Source: Burkholderiales bacterium | Lineage (GTDB): Bacteria > Pseudomonadota > Gammaproteobacteria > Burkholderiales > Burkholderiaceae_C | Direction: 5' to 3' | NCBI GenBank assembly: GCA_025351025.1 | Contig: JANXWR010000026.1 | Location: forward strand, 1-42,676 | DNA length: 42,676 nt | Shown here: piece by piece, positions 16,871-25,206 of the stretch | Numbering within the stretch: position 1 is the first letter of the stretch | Layout: the number at the start of each line of letters is the position of its first letter | Made by a program: the position numbers and the translations under genes | The notes under the pieces: model-generated | Database searches by the model: none | The model's input: only the letters and a program-made list of their open reading frames with translations | Told to the model about the DNA's origin: nothing

Positions 16871-18178
16871 ATGAAGCCGCTCGACCTGAGCTCCCTGCTT
16901 GCCGAGGTCCTCGATCCGACGACCAAGGGCTACCCGCTGTCGGCAGCGCCACTGCCGATCTCGGCGATCGGCGCCCAGGGCTGGCATCTCTTCGCCGGCG
17001 ATCTGCCGCTGCCGCTGGCGGTGTTGCGCGACTCGGCACTCGCGCACAACCACGCCTGGATGCGCGACTTCGCCGCGGCGACCAGGGTCCTGCTCGCGCC
17101 GCACGGCAAGACGACGATGGCGCCGCAGATCTTTGCCCAGCAGCTCGCCGCAGGCGCCTGGGGCATGACGGTGGCCAACGTGCAGCAGCTCCGCGTCTGC
17201 ACCCGCTTCGGCGTGCGCCGGGTGATCATGGCGAACCAGCTGCTTGGTGTGCAGGAAGTGAGCGCCGTGATCGGCCTCCAGGCGCAGTACCCCGACCTCG
17301 AGTTCCACTTCCTGATCGACTCCCTGGCGCAGCTTGCGGCGATCGAGGCCACGGCCGCCGCCGCTCCGCCGTCGCGCAAGCTCACCGCGCTGATCGAGCT
17401 CGGCGTACCGGGCGGGCGCACGGGCCTGCGCACCCACGGCCACGCGCTGGCGCTGGCGCGTGCCGTCGCCGCCAGCGGCGTCGTCGCGCTGTCGGGTCTC
17501 GAGTGCTACGAGGGCCTGGCGATCAGCGGCGACTCGGCACGCGATGCGGCGACGGTGGGCGCGCTGATGCAGCGCGTGAAAGAGCTGGCGCTGGCCTGCG
17601 ACGGCGAGGGCCTGTTCGCCGGTGCAGCGATCATCCTGACGGCCGGCGGCTCGGCCGCGTTCGACATCGTCGCCCGCGAGCTGCCGGTGCGCCTGTCGAA
17701 GCCGGTGCTGACGATCCTGCGCAGCGGCTGCTACGTCACCCACGACTCGGGCAACTACATGCGCCTGCTCGAGGGCGTCAAGGCACGCAGCGGCGCGGCC
17801 TGGCAGGCGCGCCCGGGCCTGCAACCGGCGCTCGAGGTGTGGTCGCGGGTGCAATCGGTCCCGGAGCCGGGGCTGGCGATCCTGACCATGGGCAAGCGCG
17901 ACGCCTCGTACGACATCGAGCTGCCGATTCCGCTCAAGCGTTTTCCCGCGCGCACCAGGACCGGCGCGGAGGCCGTGCCGGCGACCTGGACGATCGCTGC
18001 GATGAACGACCAGCACGCCTACCTTCGCTTCGCTGCCGACGAGACGGACCGGCCGCAGGTCGGCGACCTGATCGGCTGCGGCATCTCGCACCCGTGCACG
18101 ACCTTCGACAAATGGCGGGTGCTGTTCCGGGTCGACGATGGTTATCGCGTCACCGGCGCGATCCGCACCTTCTTCTGA
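16871..18178 (+). CDS. PLP-dependent fold-type III enzyme, DSD1/D-serine dehydratase-like amino acid deaminase
   Basis: LAPHGKTTMAP (PLP Lys), MANQL, GRTG, YEG, RSGCYVTHD, NDQH, ISHPCTTFDKW. Confidence 0.88.
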   Translation: MKPLDLSSLLAEVLDPTTKGYPLSAAPLPISAIGAQGWHLFAGDLPLPLAVLRDSALAHNHAWMRDFAAATRVLLAPHGKTTMAPQIFAQQLAAGAWGMTVANVQQLRVCTRFGVRRVIMANQLLGVQEVSAVIGLQAQYPDLEFHFLIDSLAQLAAIEATAAAAPPSRKLTALIELGVPGGRTGLRTHGHALALARAVAASGVVALSGLECYEGLAISGDSARDAATVGALMQRVKELALACDGEGLFAGAAIILTAGGSAAFDIVARELPVRLSKPVLTILRSGCYVTHDSGNYMRLLEGVKARSGAAWQARPGLQPALEVWSRVQSVPEPGLAILTMGKRDASYDIELPIPLKRFPARTRTGAEAVPATWTIAAMNDQHAYLRFAADETDRPQVGDLIGCGISHPCTTFDKWRVLFRVDDGYRVTGAIRTFF

Positions 18179-18200
18179 TGCGCCGCGCGCCCGGACTGTC

Positions 18201-19109
18201 GTGAGCCCGCCCCGCAAGACTGACCGCACGCGGCAGGGCGACCTGCTGGTGGCGATGCGCGAGCGCTCGGCGTCGCTCTCGCAGGCGCAGCGACAAGTCG
18301 CCGCGGCGATGCTCGACGACCCCGAGTTCGCGCTGCGCGCCAACGTCGATGCGCTGGCCCGGCGGGCCGACGTGAGCCCGCCGACCATCACCCGGTTCTG
18401 CCGTGCGCTCGGCTATTCGGGGCTGCGCGAATTCAAGCTGTGCCTAGCGCACACGCTGGCGGTCGGCAAGTCGACGCTGCACCGCGCCGTGAAGAGCGGC
18501 GACGACATGGAAACGGTGACGCACAAGGTGCTGCAGGACGCCGTCAGCGCGCTCTCCAACCTCGAGCAGCATGTCGTGCCCGAGGACCTGGAACGCGCCG
18601 CGACGCGCATCGCGCGGGCGCGGCGGGTCGACTGCTACGGCGTCGGCAACGTCTCGATGTTCATGGCCAGTGACGCGCAGGCGCGCTTTGCCCGGCTCGG
18701 CATGAATTGCGGCGCGTACTTCGACGCCCATCTCCAGCTCATCTCCGCCGCGACGATGGGCAAGCGCGACGTCGTCCTGGCGATCTCGTACGTCGGCCGG
18801 ATGCGCAGCCTCCTGCAGGCGGTCGAGGTCGCCCGCGAGCAGGGCGCGCTGGTCGTCGCCATCACGCAGCCGCGCACGCCGCTGGCGGCACTGGCCGACG
18901 TCGTGCTGCCGGTCGTCGTGCCGGTCGACCGGGCGATGCGCGTCGGCACCGAGGCCTATCTGGCGCAACTCACCTATCTCGAGATCCTGATGGTCGGCGT
19001 CGGCCTGCGCCGCGGCGCCGCCGCCTTCCGGAAGCTCAAGCGGGTGCGCCAGGTGCTGAAGGAACGCGGCTCGGAAAGCGAGCCGCATCCGGTCATGCCT
19101 TCGGCGTGA
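18201..19109 (+). CDS. MurR/RpiR family transcriptional regulator (HTH + SIS)
   Basis: LARRADVSPPTITRFCRALGYSGLREFK helix-turn-helix, then a SIS domain (YGVG, DVVLAISY.G, VVAIT). GTG start at 18201 inferred. Confidence 0.9.
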   Translation: MSPPRKTDRTRQGDLLVAMRERSASLSQAQRQVAAAMLDDPEFALRANVDALARRADVSPPTITRFCRALGYSGLREFKLCLAHTLAVGKSTLHRAVKSGDDMETVTHKVLQDAVSALSNLEQHVVPEDLERAATRIARARRVDCYGVGNVSMFMASDAQARFARLGMNCGAYFDAHLQLISAATMGKRDVVLAISYVGRMRSLLQAVEVAREQGALVVAITQPRTPLAALADVVLPVVVPVDRAMRVGTEAYLAQLTYLEILMVGVGLRRGAAAFRKLKRVRQVLKERGSESEPHPVMPSA

Positions 19110-19132
19110 ACGACAACGACGAGGAGTCTGCG

Positions 19133-20596
19133 ATGAATGCGCAACACGACACGAGCCCGTCGGCCTGGCTGCTGCGCGGCGGCACCGTCATCGATGGCAG
19201 CGGCGCGCCGCGCTTCGCTGCCGACGTGCGGATCGAGGGAGGGCGCGTCGTCGCCGTCGGCGAAGGGCTCGCAGAGGGCGGTGCGCGGGTCGTCGACGTG
19301 GCGGGAAAGATCGTCGCGCCCGGCTTCATCGACGTGCACACACACGACGACCAGATCGTGCTCGCGGCGCCCGAGATGCTGCCCAAGATCAGCCAGGGCG
19401 TGACCACGGTCGTCATCGGCAATTGCGGCATCAGCCTGGCGCCGCTGGTCCATGCCAACGTGCCGCCGCCGCTCAACCTGCTCGGCGGCGCCGACAAGTA
19501 CGTCTACCTGACGATGGCCGCCTACGTCGCCGCGGTCGATGCGGCGCGGCCGGCCGTCAACGTCGTGGCACTGGTCGGCCACTCGACCTTGCGCGTCGCG
19601 ACGATGGACGATCCCTACCGCCCGGCGACTTCCCAAGAGCAGGCGCGCATGGTCGAGCTGCTGCAGGAAGGCCTGGCTGCCGGCGCCGCCGGCCTGAGCT
19701 CGGGCGTGTTCTACGCCACCGGCGCCGCCGCCGACATCGACGAGCTGGCGCTGCTTGCCGGCGTCGCCGGCGCGGCTGGCGGCGTCTACACGACGCACAT
19801 CCGCCAGGAGATGGACAAGGTCATCGATTCGCTCGACGAAGCCTTCGCCACGGGGCGGCGCGGCAAGGTGCCGGTGATCGTCTCGCACCACAAGTGCGCC
19901 GGCCCGCGCAACTGGGGCCGCACGATCGAGACGCTGGCCCACATCGACGCGGCGCGCCGGCACCAGCCGATCGGTCTCGACTGCTATCCCTACGTCGCCG
20001 GCTCGACCGTATTGCGCAGAGAGATGGTCGACGGCGTCATCGAGATACTGATCACCTGGTCGACGCCGCATCCAGAGATGGCAGCGCGCCGCCTCGCTGA
20101 CATCGCGGCGGAGTGGGGCTGCAGCCAGCAGGCAGCTTGCGAGCGCCTGCAGCCGGGCGGCGCCTGCTACTTCCAGATGCGCGAGGACGATGTGCAGCGC
20201 GTCTTGTGCTATCCGGTGACGATGATCGGCTCCGACGGGCTGCCGCACGACCAGCATCCGCACCCGCGGCTCTGGGGGACGTTTCCGCGCGTGCTCGGCC
20301 ACTACAGCCGTGAGCTCGGCCTGTTTTCGCTCGAGACCGCGGTGCACAAGATGACCGGGCTCTCGGCGCGCCAGTTCCAGCTCGTGGATCGCGGCGAGAT
20401 TCGGGTCGGCGCGTTCGCCGATCTCGTCGTGTTCGATGCGGCGACGGTCGAGGACAAGGCGACCTTCGAGCAGCCGAAGGCACTCTCGGCAGGCATCGTT
20501 CGCGTGTTCGTGAACGGCGAGCCCGCGTACCGCGGTGACGACGGACAGGTCCAACGCCACGGCCGGTTCCTGAAGCGAACGCCCGACCTCGCCTGA
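19133..20596 (+). CDS. N-acyl-D-amino-acid deacylase (D-aminoacylase)
   Basis: VIDGSG, APGFIDVHTHDD, QGVTTVVIGNCG, HIR, SHHK, YPYVAGST, GSDG, HPRLWGTFPRVLG. GAGGAG RBS. Confidence 0.93.
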   Translation: MNAQHDTSPSAWLLRGGTVIDGSGAPRFAADVRIEGGRVVAVGEGLAEGGARVVDVAGKIVAPGFIDVHTHDDQIVLAAPEMLPKISQGVTTVVIGNCGISLAPLVHANVPPPLNLLGGADKYVYLTMAAYVAAVDAARPAVNVVALVGHSTLRVATMDDPYRPATSQEQARMVELLQEGLAAGAAGLSSGVFYATGAAADIDELALLAGVAGAAGGVYTTHIRQEMDKVIDSLDEAFATGRRGKVPVIVSHHKCAGPRNWGRTIETLAHIDAARRHQPIGLDCYPYVAGSTVLRREMVDGVIEILITWSTPHPEMAARRLADIAAEWGCSQQAACERLQPGGACYFQMREDDVQRVLCYPVTMIGSDGLPHDQHPHPRLWGTFPRVLGHYSRELGLFSLETAVHKMTGLSARQFQLVDRGEIRVGAFADLVVFDAATVEDKATFEQPKALSAGIVRVFVNGEPAYRGDDGQVQRHGRFLKRTPDLA

Positions 20597-21868: not shown

Positions 21869-21903
21869 CGGGGCGGCGCGATCCTCGGGCGGTGCCTGGC
21901 GGC

Positions 21904-22248
21904 CTACGCGCGCATGAACAACCGGCTGCGCATCAGTGAATCGGCGTCGCGCACGTCGACGCCTTGCACCGGACTCTCGGCCGTGAAACGGTACTCGATG
22001 CCGCTCGCCGCGCCACGAACGACGACCGCGCTGCGTTCCACGTAGCGCAGCAGCACGGCACGACCGAGTGGCCGCGCCGATGAACCTGCGCCACGGCGCT
22101 CAGCCGCGGCGTTTGGCGGCGAGGTCAACGTCGAAAGTCCCGTCCGGTACGCGCTCGGACCAGGCAGGTTCGGTCGCACCTCCCATGACCGGTTGCTCAC
22201 TGACGGCGGATTGCTGAACGCCGCCCGATTCTGTCCGCAACATCCCAT
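21904..22248 (-). CDS. small hypothetical protein (114 aa): N-terminal MGCCG, disordered linker, C-terminal Y..VVRG..SG..YRF..VD.RDA domain
   Basis: AAGGAG RBS closely upstream of ATG 22248. Last gene of the three-gene cluster. Confidence 0.75.
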   Translation of the reverse strand: MGCCGQNRAAFSNPPSVSNRSWEVRPNLPGPSAYRTGLSTLTSPPNAAAERRGAGSSARPLGRAVLLRYVERSAVVVRGAASGIEYRFTAESPVQGVDVRDADSLMRSRLFMRA

Positions 22249-22582
22249 CGGTTTCTCCTTGTGCAACCGGATTCAGGGGTTGGATCACGAGCTTGTCTGC
22301 GCTCGCGCGCTCGAGCAGACAAACCGCGCCCGACAGCGCCAACCACAGCACGATGCCGTCGCCCAGGGTGGTTGCCAGCCACCACGCCATCGGTGCGGCG
22401 ACCCAGAGGCTGGTGCAGTTGAAGCAGTCCATCAGGTGGCCGAGCCAGCCGCCGCCCAGGCGGGCGCGCAGCCGCGCGACCAGATCGGCCGGCCCATCCT
22501 CGCGGGCGATCAGGTGCGTCAGCCGCCACGTGGCCAGAACGGCCAGCGCCAGCCTGGCCCAAAAGGCCGCGTCGGCGGTCAT
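22100..22582 (-). CDS. DUF1360-like small membrane protein with CxxC
   Basis: LATWRLTHLIAREDGP...LR...G.LGHLMDCFNCTSLW matches the DUF1360 pattern (RLT.L...D...G.L..C.xC...W). About 3 TM segments. ATG 1 nt after the upstream TGA. Confidence 0.78.
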   Translation of the reverse strand: MTADAAFWARLALAVLATWRLTHLIAREDGPADLVARLRARLGGGWLGHLMDCFNCTSLWVAAPMAWWLATTLGDGIVLWLALSGAVCLLERASADKLVIQPLNPVAQGETDGMLRTESGGVQQSAVSEQPVMGGATEPAWSERVPDGTFDVDLAAKRRG

Positions 22583-22583
22583 C

Positions 22584-24977
22584 TCAGGCGGCGGGTTTCA
22601 CGACCGGCAGATCGTTGCAGATGCAAACCGCCCATGGCAGCGACCAGGCGGCATGGCACGGCGGGGAGCTGGTGCGTGTCTTGTCCTGCGCGTAGAGCTG
22701 GAAGGTGTAGCCGCAGCAAGTGCCGCGCTCGAGCGCGAAGCCCGCGGGCGGCGCGATCGGTGCGACCAGCGAGCCTACGCACCCGACATCGAAGATGCGC
22801 AGATCGATGGTCGTGAGCAGGCCCAGCACCCGTGGCGGGATCGGCGGCGGCACCGGGCAGCCGGCCACGGTGGGCAACGGCTCGCAGCGCACGCCCGGGT
22901 CGCCGACGCGGGTCGTTCCCTTCAACGGGTCTGGGCCGAAGATTGACGGCGCCAGGGTCGGCGTGATCGGAACCCCATAGCTCGGCCCGCCCTGGCGCGT
23001 GATCCACAGGCTGTAGTAGTCGAAGTTGTCGCTCGGGAACGAGGTGTCGGTCTCGTCGACGTACTCGTCGAAGGCGATGCCCTGCAGTCCGGCCGGCCAC
23101 GGCACGGCGCACGGCGCGCCGGGCGGGATGAAGCTGCCGTCGAGCGAGAGGTGCATGTCGGTGCACGACGGCAGGCCGCGGATGCCGCCGAAGTAGACCT
23201 GCGTTTCGCCGATCATCGGCTTGTTGTCGAAGTACACGTGCTGCGTGTCGTAGTAGTGGGTGCCGAGCGTGTCCGTCACGTCGAGCAGCAGCGTGTACTT
23301 GCCGCTCTGGCAGCGGTGGTGCGGGTCGGGACAGCCGGCCGCGTCGGTTACGCCGGAGGGCAGCGCGCTCGCGCTCGGAAAGCAGGTCGGCTGCAGTTTC
23401 CAGAGGTGATGCAGGTTCAGCGAGGGGATGTCGATGTTGTCGACGAGGGCCGTGGTCAAGGTCGCGTTGACGCCGATGACCTGATTCCACGGCGCGCGCT
23501 TGCGCGACTCGACCACCGGGTCGGGATCGGTGTAGCAGACGGGCCCGGAGAGCAGCAGCGAGCCGGTGTAGGCCGCCGGGCTGAAGCCGGGCTGGGTCGG
23601 CCCGGGCAGATAGCCCAGCCCCCAGCGCAGATCGAAGCACTTGATCTTGCGGCCGCTGCAGTCGCCCACGTAGGCGCTGCCGCCTACCTGCACGCAGCAG
23701 CCGACCGGCACTTCTTCACCGGCCGAGCCGGAGATGACTGCGTCGGGATCGAACGGATCGGTCGGGTTGATCGGCGCTTCGGCGACGTGATCGATCCAGA
23801 CCATGACCTTGAACAACGCGAATTGCTTGCAGAAGCAGCAGAGCGCGCCGCCGCCGGACGGGAACACGCAGAGACGGATCTCGAACGAGTCCGGCGGGAG
23901 CGTGGTGGTCTCGATCCAGCCGAGCGTACCGGCGCCGACCTGCACCGAGCCGACACTACCGCCGCCGGGATAGCTGATGCCGACGCTCGACCAGTCGAGC
24001 CCGTCATGGCAGTCCTGCCCCTGGACCTTGCGCCATTGCAGCACGTAGTGGTCGAACATGCCGCCAGAAGCCGTGCCGACGATCTCGAGCCCGACCCCGC
24101 CGGTCGCGAGCGGCTTCTCTGCGGCGCAACCGGTCGGAGCGGTCACGTCGCAGCGCAACGGCTGAAAGCACTCGCGCAGGCAACGCCGATAGAACTTCAG
24201 GCAGCGCAGCACGTCGACGAGACGGCGCGCCCGCCCGAGGCAGCAGCCGAACCGGATCGCGCACAGGCACCAGCAGCGGCAGAACCAGAAGAACGGATCC
24301 TTGCTGTGCTGCTCGAAGGCCTTGGCACCGAGCAGCGCCTGCGCGGCGTCGACGGTGAGAAGGCGCTCGAAGATCGCGCTCGCGTCTTCTTCGCCGCTGT
24401 TGCAATCGATCTTTCCTGCCAGCACTTCCTCGGGCAGGCCGAGCGGAAAATCGACGGTGGCGAGTTGGTCAGTCAGGAACGGCCGGTAGGCGGCGGCCGC
24501 CGCCTTGACCAGGACCTGGAAGTCGGCCCGGTCGTGGGCCGTCGGCGGATTGGCGATCGGTGCGCCGATCGCCTGGCGTACGCACAGCCAGTAGCGATGC
24601 AGGTAGTAGACGAACAGCCGGAAGTTGCGGGGCCGCCGACACAGCAGCCAGCCGAACACGATGCAGCAACGGATGTGCAGCAGGCACCAGCGCCAGCGCT
24701 CGACCGGGCCGAGCAGCTCGCGCGCCTCGACGGGCAGCAGGCTCACCGCGACTTCTTCGGTGAAGAAGCGGTCGAGGATCTGGCTGGTCTGGGTGATCTC
24801 GTCTTCGCAGTTGGCGGGGTGCGCTTCTGCTTCCTTTTCCAGCGCCTCGGGATCCTTGCTGCGTGCCAGCTCCTGTTCGAGGATCGGCTGATAGGCGCTG
24901 AGCAGTGCCTTCAGTGCGAACTGGAAATCCGGGTCGCGATCATCGGCAGCAGCCGTGACCGGAGCTTTGGTCGCCAT
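22584..24977 (-). CDS. large cysteine-rich hypothetical protein (797 aa, 41 Cys): tandem 135-aa helical repeat + three Ig-like beta-sandwich repeats
   Basis: AGGAG RBS before ATG 24977. Coding-like codon usage, visible internal repeats, no signal peptide, no recognised catalytic motif. Confidence 0.88.
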   Translation of the reverse strand: MATKAPVTAAADDRDPDFQFALKALLSAYQPILEQELARSKDPEALEKEAEAHPANCEDEITQTSQILDRFFTEEVAVSLLPVEARELLGPVERWRWCLLHIRCCIVFGWLLCRRPRNFRLFVYYLHRYWLCVRQAIGAPIANPPTAHDRADFQVLVKAAAAAYRPFLTDQLATVDFPLGLPEEVLAGKIDCNSGEEDASAIFERLLTVDAAQALLGAKAFEQHSKDPFFWFCRCWCLCAIRFGCCLGRARRLVDVLRCLKFYRRCLRECFQPLRCDVTAPTGCAAEKPLATGGVGLEIVGTASGGMFDHYVLQWRKVQGQDCHDGLDWSSVGISYPGGGSVGSVQVGAGTLGWIETTTLPPDSFEIRLCVFPSGGGALCCFCKQFALFKVMVWIDHVAEAPINPTDPFDPDAVISGSAGEEVPVGCCVQVGGSAYVGDCSGRKIKCFDLRWGLGYLPGPTQPGFSPAAYTGSLLLSGPVCYTDPDPVVESRKRAPWNQVIGVNATLTTALVDNIDIPSLNLHHLWKLQPTCFPSASALPSGVTDAAGCPDPHHRCQSGKYTLLLDVTDTLGTHYYDTQHVYFDNKPMIGETQVYFGGIRGLPSCTDMHLSLDGSFIPPGAPCAVPWPAGLQGIAFDEYVDETDTSFPSDNFDYYSLWITRQGGPSYGVPITPTLAPSIFGPDPLKGTTRVGDPGVRCEPLPTVAGCPVPPPIPPRVLGLLTTIDLRIFDVGCVGSLVAPIAPPAGFALERGTCCGYTFQLYAQDKTRTSSPPCHAAWSLPWAVCICNDLPVVKPAA

Positions 24978-25072
24978 CGTCGACTCTCCTCGCGGATGAG
25001 GATTCGTCACCGGCACGGGTTCGGCAGTGGCCGCACTCGAGGCGCCTTCGAAACGTGACAAATCGGACGCGG

Positions 25073-25118
25073 ATGCTACTCAATTCGAATTTGCATGAAT
25101 AGCTGTCAGACCTGACAG
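25073..25118 (-). promoter_or_regulatory. candidate activator-dependent promoter: perfect 7-2-7 palindrome CTGTCAG-AC-CTGACAG abutting weak -35 TATTCA-N17-TAGCAT
   Basis: Palindrome at 25103-25118, -35 at 25101-25096, -10 at 25078-25073 (minus strand). AT-rich island upstream of the Cys-rich gene. Confidence 0.5.
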
Positions 25119-25206
25119 TTTCAAGGATCGCAGCGCCGGGGGATCATCACAGGTTTGTCGCCCGCCGTGCTGGCAAGGGAGGCGGTGCTCCGGCCCGCCG
25201 AGCGGC

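Follow-up and report, generated by a model that had tools for sequence, protein, structure and literature searches.

A patchy three-gene cassette with a DUF1360-like membrane protein and a Cys-Cys partner: a possible cytoplasmic relay for disulfide formation in cysteine-rich, signal-less proteins

In the stretch of DNA analysed here (hereafter the window, i.e. the whole 42,676 nucleotides of contig JANXWR010000026.1, assembly GCA_025351025.1, from a Burkholderiales bacterium), three minus-strand genes form a compact cassette encoding a large cysteine-rich protein (A), a small DUF1360-like membrane protein (B) and a short protein with an N-terminal Cys-Cys-Gly (C). Judged from its sequence, this cassette is real and undescribed, and none of its parts belongs to a characterised family; no description of it was found in the open-access literature searched, and a mention elsewhere is possible. 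Protein A bears the signature of disulfide bonding, and B and C travel together as a portable unit. It is tentatively proposed that B and C constitute a cytoplasm-facing thiol-oxidising relay, which would form disulfides in the signal-less protein A or in another client encoded beside them, a reading to which we give a probability of roughly 0.4. The features concerned are the following, in window coordinates:

24977-22584, minus strand: gene A, 797 amino acids with 41 cysteines, a likely disulfide-bonded client; no signal peptide or membrane helix seen
22582-22100, minus strand: gene B, a DUF1360-like membrane protein of 160 amino acids; conserved core at residues ~5-95, tail overlapping gene C
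22248-21904, minus strand: gene C, 114 amino acids; N-terminal Cys-Cys-Gly, variable linker and small conserved C-terminal domain
24162..24938, minus strand: head of A (residues ~14-272), an all-helical module rich in Cys and Trp and present twice, from the AlphaFold2 model and repeat comparison
22608..24161, minus strand: body of A (residues 273-790), three tandem Ig/FnIII-like beta-sandwiches
22415..22426, minus strand: CxxC of B (C53, C56), predicted at the cytoplasmic end of membrane helix 2
22237..22242, minus strand: Cys-Cys of C, invariant in 61/61 rows
24978..25206, no strand assigned: intergenic region 5' of A, with the ribosome-binding site AGGAG and a 7-2-7 palindrome (candidate operator)

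The coordinates and junctions of the three coupled genes, as described in an earlier note on this DNA, were confirmed: A and B are joined by TGA-G-ATG (22586-22580), B and C overlap by 149 nucleotides, the MGCCG start of C is preceded by an AAGGAG site and the A-B-C operon spans 3.1 kb. The cysteine motifs listed in that note are likewise as stated, namely the 41 cysteines of A with CRCWCLC (233-239), the CC pairs (104/105, 245/246, 380/381, 427/428 and 754/755) and CIC (785-787), the CFNC of B and the MGCCG of C. Cysteine makes up 5.1% of A; its share in ten other window genes, counting B and C, is 0.3-3.0%. In a 121-row alignment, 33 of the 41 cysteines are kept in at least 90% of ungapped rows, cysteine being the best conserved residue class. 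A GTDB scan for A gave 197 relatives, of which the best 80 loci were taken; the downstream region was readable in 75, five being cut by contig ends. Among these 75, the order A-B-C was found in 66, A-C in three and A alone in six (five of them Geobacter-type), the 66 complete loci falling by record title into ten named phyla with three unassigned. Co-occurrence across phyla and conservation of the cysteines, both raised in the earlier note, are hence borne out and, taken together, show that the cysteine richness and the layout exceed chance.

Regarding the nature of A, the earlier claim that it has no recognisable signal peptide also holds. No family match was obtained in Pfam (E <= 0.01), PHROGs, NCBIfam (E <= 0.1) or PADLOC (anti-phage defence), the latter matching none of eleven proteins searched at E <= 0.01 (A, B, C, six other clients and two head-swapped relatives), and neither a signal peptide nor a membrane helix was visible by eye or by hydropathy. 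Of 7990 candidates scored, 507 are relatives at E <= 0.001; the best 120 (45-93% identity) carry no Pfam domain and those that are named are labelled hypothetical. A PDB sequence search retrieved antibody V domains alone (E >= 0.15), and an Atlas search retrieved unnamed clusters and Ig-domain leads below 0.9. The AlphaFold2 model of A is confident (predicted local distance difference test score, pLDDT, 93; predicted template modelling score, pTM, 0.77), with an all-helical head at residues ~14-272 followed by three beta-sandwiches. The head is an internal duplication (repeat 34% identical, E 6e-13; hhalign 98.5%). Whole-model fold searches, which covered residues 272-788, assign to the body the fold of contactin FN1-3, SiiE and CbhA FnIII-like modules (Z 8.4-8.6); the best of these matches to tandem FnIII/Ig structures (Z 8.6, root-mean-square deviation 8.7 over 277 residues) is generic, and such proteins differ from A in that they share only 8-14% identity with its body and are exported, whereas A has no signal. 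The 41 bodies aligned all have C440, C605 and C755 and, in domain 3, an invariant polar cluster (D637, N651 and D765). As a separate observation, Asp566 and His574 co-vary among A homologues (phi 0.99, 11 changes each; window ~23282-23256), the residues here being Leu and His.

Covariation of the cysteines was followed in 207 aligned A proteins, of which 173 were kept (< 90% identity), on a FastTree tree built without the cysteine columns and with the frameshifted L048 excluded. Cys200 and Cys242 are both present in 46 proteins, both absent from 125 and never found singly; each changes 12 times, and all 11 independent contrasts agree (p ~0.001). Cys427 and Cys774 are both present in 67, both absent from 105 and single in one (contrasts 6/6, p 0.03). 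The pair Cys428/Cys532 is weaker (100 both, 63 neither, 10 single; four contrasts agree, none opposes and three show no change; p 0.125), and Cys113/Cys245 shows one joint loss. In a control over 1,839,991 residue-trait pairs with at least six changes each, only 22 reach phi >= 0.85: 200/242 and 427/774 rank first and third, 428/532 is among the 22, and no third column of the control set tracks 200/242 or 427/774 as closely. A clean partner was not found for the variable cysteines 370, 379-381, 383, 517 and 785. Gain and loss in exclusive pairs is the pattern of structural disulfides and A is likely disulfide-bonded, in agreement with the thiol cross-linking of the large protein suggested in the earlier note.

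The same data bear on a second suggestion, i.e. metal sequestration. Here, the CxxC of B and the Cys-Cys of C would hand on a soft metal (Cu(I), Hg, As or Zn) to the helical, Cys-lined head of A, for which copper storage proteins and ArsD/MerT-type relays are the comparison families. Invariant cysteine clusters in the head would suit such a role and lie beyond the reach of covariation, which covers the variable cysteines and not the invariant core; moreover, a tetra-repeat head with Cx3C helices is found on the same body. Nonetheless, the covariation fits structural disulfides better than metal sites: the varying cysteines change in exclusive twos without a third ligand column, and a lost cysteine becomes His or Met in only 9 of ~760 cases. 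No metal-resistance/transport family recurs beside the 80 loci, the Cys-lined head is missing from most other clients, and A has no family match to copper storage proteins (Pfam E <= 0.01; NCBIfam E <= 0.1). Metal handling is thus disfavoured and we consider it improbable.

In addition to A, searches starting from B revealed that B and C, rather than the triad, are the conserved portable unit. The B alignment was searched in samples of five phyla (995 genomes), with matches in 9/301, 5/221, 4/101, 2/151 and 7/221 (27 in total). Four centre loci chosen via A were left out, giving 23 B loci; L179 (weak, broken and without CxxC) was dropped, and L107, located in a centre genome but away from its A, was kept. 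C follows B in 22 of the 23 loci as judged by hidden Markov model, L107 having a 33-residue MSCCG frame instead. The gene upstream of B, readable in 22 loci, is of type A in three and encodes another large Cys-rich protein in 17, with two exceptions discussed below. These 17 proteins (432-768 amino acids, no evident signal) contain 11-20 cysteines, or 1.4-2.7%, as compared with a median of 0.66% in 53 neighbouring frames, ten of which reach 1.4%. BLAST sorts them into ~eight groups, although four of them are close kin, and cysteine is the best conserved residue in all six client groups aligned (two to four sequences each). The cassette described in the earlier note is conserved as such, but the unit of conservation, B with C, had been missed.

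A profile search gave 352 matches at E <= 0.001, and among the 150 listed the three-Ig body of A is combined with at least four further kinds of head, none with a described function (P0128, P0132-P0134, P0143-P0144, P0166-P0181, P0221, P0224, P0257; L116-L135). One is a helical Cx3C repeat in four copies, another a membrane anchor of two helices, and the remaining two are duplicated domains, either transthyretin-like or of NPNYFG type, the latter with weak GEVED matches. Two client groups share the transthyretin-like or NPNYFG heads with A-type bodies (E 1e-91 and 1e-58). Several further kinships were tried and not retained, namely homology of other clients' bodies to that of A (borderline at best: 11.5 bits, E 0.47, genome as decoy), homology of type-A and Cys-zipper heads (hhalign only 0.3-2.5%) and a LecB-like motif considered for the MQGNW group, which a PDB search did not support. 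Two related proteins of 430-450 amino acids with a Ser/Thr-rich stretch and a conserved terminal cysteine are encoded before B (L177:2331-3626, minus) and after C (L174:6766-8106, plus); no significant Pfam, PDB or PADLOC match was found in those scanned, and we take them, by eye, to resemble beta-pore-forming proteins.

The assignment of B to DUF1360 in the earlier note stands for the family as a whole: every one of the 61 aligned B sequences is matched by PF07098 (E <= 0.1, best 1.6e-8) and the cassette B in the genome of L024 reaches 25.3 bits, above the cut-off. The B of the window, at 20.0 bits (E 7e-4), falls slightly short of the 21-bit cut-off. Its match to phrog_781 is at 7.5e-5, and in B, as in actinobacterial and phage members of DUF1360/phrog_781, the CxxC is followed by Trp; the actinobacterial members, among the loci listed, have neither A nor C alongside. 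The core of ~95 residues comprises three predicted helices and the invariant residues W19, R20, D29-G30-P31, R39, C53, C56, S58, W80, S84 and G85, the CxxC (CFNC at 53-56 here) being present in 61/61 aligned rows and in 23/23 B loci not picked via A. Lys plus Arg average 4.75 in the loop preceding the CxxC, as against 0.88 in the loop that follows and 0.16 in the N-terminal part, a charge distribution which, by the positive-inside rule of thumb, predicts that the CxxC faces the cytoplasm. The structure model of B is weak (pLDDT 66, pTM 0.36): its best fold match (Z 5.0) is to unrelated chains and its best viral match is a DUF1360 protein at E 0.28. B was not matched in phages, and one distant DUF1360 gene was found in viral contigs (L081:740-5578, plus), where it lies between a gene for a 1050-residue multi-glycosyltransferase and one for a 425-residue protein with 10 cysteines and no known family. 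A DUF1360 domain has been named in a mycobacteriophage membrane protein in an account that, in the passages concerned, gives no functional test (10.1101/2023.05.30.542743), and no tested function for DUF1360 was found in such passages of the open-access literature; the family is also named in PMC10551460.

Protein C is defined by its Cys-Cys-Gly, invariant in 61/61 rows, and by a variable low-complexity linker of 25-86 residues (median 55). It has no family, PDB or named Atlas match and none of the 61 rows matches thioredoxin; no relative of C was found among proteins of at least 243 amino acids, which is weak evidence, and a suspected resemblance to ribosomal L9-N/YqbF domains was not borne out. 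The tail of B overlaps C by more than 30 nucleotides in 55 of 62 loci, 54 of these 55 overlaps being in one same frame, and seven pairs do not overlap. A programmed frameshift from B to C was considered but is unneeded: C can be translated from a start codon and ribosome site of its own, and these seven pairs lack an overlap. In-frame B-C fusions occur in three records (L066, P0300 and P0294), and three further records look like frameshift products. Prediction of a B+C complex yielded no usable result (score 0.00, mark 0.32) and is not counted as evidence.

The oxidising relay is preferred because the invariant residues of B and C include Cys pairs, because both are predicted to act at the cytoplasmic face, because B and C fuse and because their clients share conserved cysteines and not a head. 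In such a relay, C would dock through its folded domain while its N-terminal Cys-Cys would swing on the long flexible arm between B and the client, and the CxxC of B, at the inner membrane surface, would pass electrons into the membrane; speculatively, the acceptor might be a quinone, on the model of VKOR, DsbB and MauE. The product, in the case of A, would be a rigid cross-linked structural or binding protein made of a duplicated helical head and three Ig-like domains, in which spare cysteines could link subunits, the cysteine number being odd in most homologues (98 of 123 full-length proteins, kin not being independent).

Several known systems offer precedents for parts of this scheme. An inward-facing VKOR is described in Aeropyrum pernix (ApVKORi; PMC13486548) and, like ApVKORi, DsbB and VKOR, B is a small membrane protein with a CxxC at the start of a membrane helix, its predicted inward orientation being that of ApVKORi; it differs in that no sequence or fold match to B was found (with a weak model) and that its partner C is not of thioredoxin fold. 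In methylamine dehydrogenase biogenesis, the membrane thiol oxidase MauE and its soluble partner MauD are encoded with a disulfide-rich client, the small subunit of the enzyme (10.64898/2026.03.05.709764), an arrangement reminiscent of B, C and A. However, MauE has a CxC, MauD a thioredoxin fold, the source places both among periplasmic pathways where it treats them, and no Pfam match links them to B or C. Vaccinia virus possesses a dedicated relay, E10/A2.5/G4, that forms disulfides in the cytoplasm and includes a small Cys-pair protein (PMC9282662); it is viral and built on the ERV1/ALR and glutaredoxin families, homology of which to B or C was not found. The cassette may work like MauE/MauD, the inward VKOR and the vaccinia relay, an analogy we hold as tentatively as the relay itself, while by sequence it belongs to none of them.

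Several observations weigh against an oxidising relay. First, paired cysteine evolution is silent on the compartment and timing of the bonds and on the direction in which B and C act. Second, sequence searches did not connect B with VKOR, DsbB or MauE (61 rows against Pfam at E <= 0.1; PDB profile search), VKOR and DsbB are absent among the 50 best PDB fold matches of the weak B model (pLDDT 66), and C, which has no thioredoxin fold match, carries a vicinal Cys-Cys on a flexible arm instead of a CxxC. The B-C fusions could be single-base assembly errors, as the two genes overlap in a fixed frame. Two of the 22 upstream genes, both with an N-terminal hydrophobic stretch, do not fit: in L107, it encodes an outer-membrane-type protein 945 nucleotides away, and in L115 (6069-11404, minus) genes that are by eye sigma-factor-like and anti-sigma-like, then one for a 309-residue unknown protein and one for a CHAT/TPR protein with three cysteines, precede B and C. 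Moreover, CotY gains its disulfides inside E. coli by cooperative self-assembly, the passages in question proposing no dedicated oxidase (PMC4950064). Finally, A persists where B or C does not. In the nine readable loci without adjacent B, A keeps 34-40 cysteines, as compared with a median of 38 with B; eight of these nine loci are in genomes without any B match (most are metagenome-assembled, of unknown completeness), the five Geobacter-type genomes also lack a C match and three loci have A and C without B. Relatives of A with a membrane anchor, which retain 5-6 conserved cysteines, have adjacent B or C in none of 14 readable loci (12 distinct), and the transthyretin-headed body of L135 also lacks B and C. 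Since A keeps its cysteines without B, and anchored bodies exist without adjacent B or C, the pair is not strictly required for cysteine retention; such loci would be expected if B and C merely help oxidation along, by accelerating or steering it, and equally if they are a tether for which a membrane anchor can stand in.

The latter possibility leads to a different view of B and C, as a membrane tether or small exporter for signal-less clients in which C adapts the client head to B, disulfides arise on export, at lysis or by cooperative assembly, and a two-helix anchor can substitute for the pair. It would account for the mutual exclusion just described (66 of the 75 soluble type-A loci have B and C next to A, but none of the 14 loci with an anchored body does), for the interchangeability of heads on one body, for client folds typical of outside proteins (Ig/FnIII, transthyretin-like) and for the retention of cysteines by A without B. 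The anchored bodies are those among the metagenome sequences covered and in a sample of genomes, and are predicted, by eye, to lie inside the cell; L127 and L128 carry B and C 2.8 kb off on the opposite strand, and G350 has them on another contig. A 184-residue protein with 8 cysteines, unrelated to B and C, is encoded directly after the membrane-anchored body in L129 (2659-3342) and L131 (2923-3606). A tether or exporter nevertheless does not account for the fact that it is Cys pairs that are invariant in B and C, one type of B and C serves unrelated heads (type-A and Cys-zipper without hhalign link, transthyretin-like and NPNYFG different again), and both anchor and pair are missing from the transthyretin-headed L135 and from six soluble A loci. 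We consider this view rather unlikely, while taking it seriously. The same motifs and topology would also allow a reducing or proof-reading role, B and C keeping client cysteines reduced, or reshuffling wrong pairs, until assembly or exit from the cell, and this would fit their dispensability where host reductases suffice. A dedicated, inward-facing membrane reductase is yet hard to motivate, as the cytoplasm already contains thioredoxin and glutaredoxin systems, and neither a flavoprotein nor a thioredoxin is encoded recurrently beside the cassette; we give such a role little credence.

The oxidising relay leaves room for several end products, one of which, a spore-crust-like shell, coat or filament built by A with B as anchor or oxidase, was suggested in the earlier note and is compatible with the relay. 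The disulfide signature and the odd cysteine number of A speak for it. A PF07098 match is present in Bacillus subtilis, where we take the DUF1360 gene to be yjcA, beside cotVWXYZ. yjcA is a sigma-E gene (PMC517825), and the crust proteins CotY and CotZ are, like A, Cys-rich and signal-less, gain disulfides intracellularly and, for CotY, form disulfide-linked lattices (PMC4950064). CotY is however a protein of ~18 kDa without sequence match to A, which is a 797-residue head-plus-Ig protein in a patchy cassette. A has no match to coat families and the Cys pairs found can be intramolecular. Unlike core developmental genes, A occurs in only 1 of 35 other genomes of the genus, at another site in that relative, and in 0 of 24 others of the order. 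With no coat, sporulation or other family travelling with the cassette, specificity for a spore coat or cyst is not upheld, and a shell of this kind appears a long shot.

The cassette is rare and patchy. A search of 350 other genomes from the phylum gave no B except for a single match that is weak and broken, and A was not matched in plasmids. In the one relative of the genus that has the cassette, DNA similarity (83%) extends only over window positions 21873-24977, with different flanks at a different site. The flanks in the window are ordinary by Pfam (an AMP-binding enzyme upstream, a helix-turn-helix regulator and a GNAT protein downstream, amidases and transporters), and the plus-strand genes at 16871-20596, encoding a D-serine dehydratase-like protein, an RpiR regulator and an amidohydrolase, form an ordinary D-amino-acid catabolic cluster. 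The promoter island described in the earlier note is retained as a gap of ~230 nucleotides upstream of A with a perfect 7-2-7 palindrome at 25103-25118, but a sigma-70 consensus was not found in this gap and the palindrome is not enriched upstream of family A genes (3 of 78 regions, against a mean of 1.2 and a maximum of 4 in shuffles); it is the sole copy in the genome at <= 1 mismatch, and the closest relative, L001, has a version with one mismatch. In three soil runs, 5-8% of query words were present, all in relatives' contigs; two of the runs are possibly DNA, and the runs are therefore silent on expression. No fourth conserved gene was found beside the 80 loci, where regulators, transporters and a protease-like gene (4 loci) recur. 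The latter, encoding 330-370 amino acids, adjoins A or C in L002, L003, L011 and L020 and presumably resembles Nal1-type S1 peptidases. Radical SAM enzymes were considered as partners of the cassette and set aside, being next to Geobacter copies in three loci only; in two Geobacter loci (L060:10300-12340 and L068:10433-12396), the genes next after A encode a small protein that terminates in a CxxC run rich in Cys and Thr and a radical SAM-like enzyme; the two probably form an unrelated pair for peptide modification.

Catalysed formation of disulfides within the cytoplasm has been described for poxviruses and some hyperthermophilic archaea (PMC13486548), and the catalyst of virion disulfides in the Jabs phage is called an open question in its description (10.64898/2026.07.24.740622). 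The cassette offers a compact test system, consisting of a 160-residue membrane protein, a 114-residue partner and a client with predicted Cys pairs. If the oxidising relay is true, DUF1360 would gain a function, disulfide-locked proteins made inside the cell would form a new class, and the cassette would offer a minimal tool for oxidative folding in the cytoplasm; if false, the cassette would still be an undescribed tethering or export module common to several protein families. In its widest form, which we regard as doubtful, the proposal is that ordinary mesophiles of at least ten phyla carry a two-gene cytoplasmic oxidative folding machine, a DUF1360-type oxidase with a swinging Cys-Cys arm, that makes a whole class of modular signal-less disulfide-locked proteins or assemblies. 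Were B and C indeed to oxidise in the cytoplasm across so many phyla, the same enzyme family would explain the disulfides of phage particles and spore layers that lack a known catalyst.

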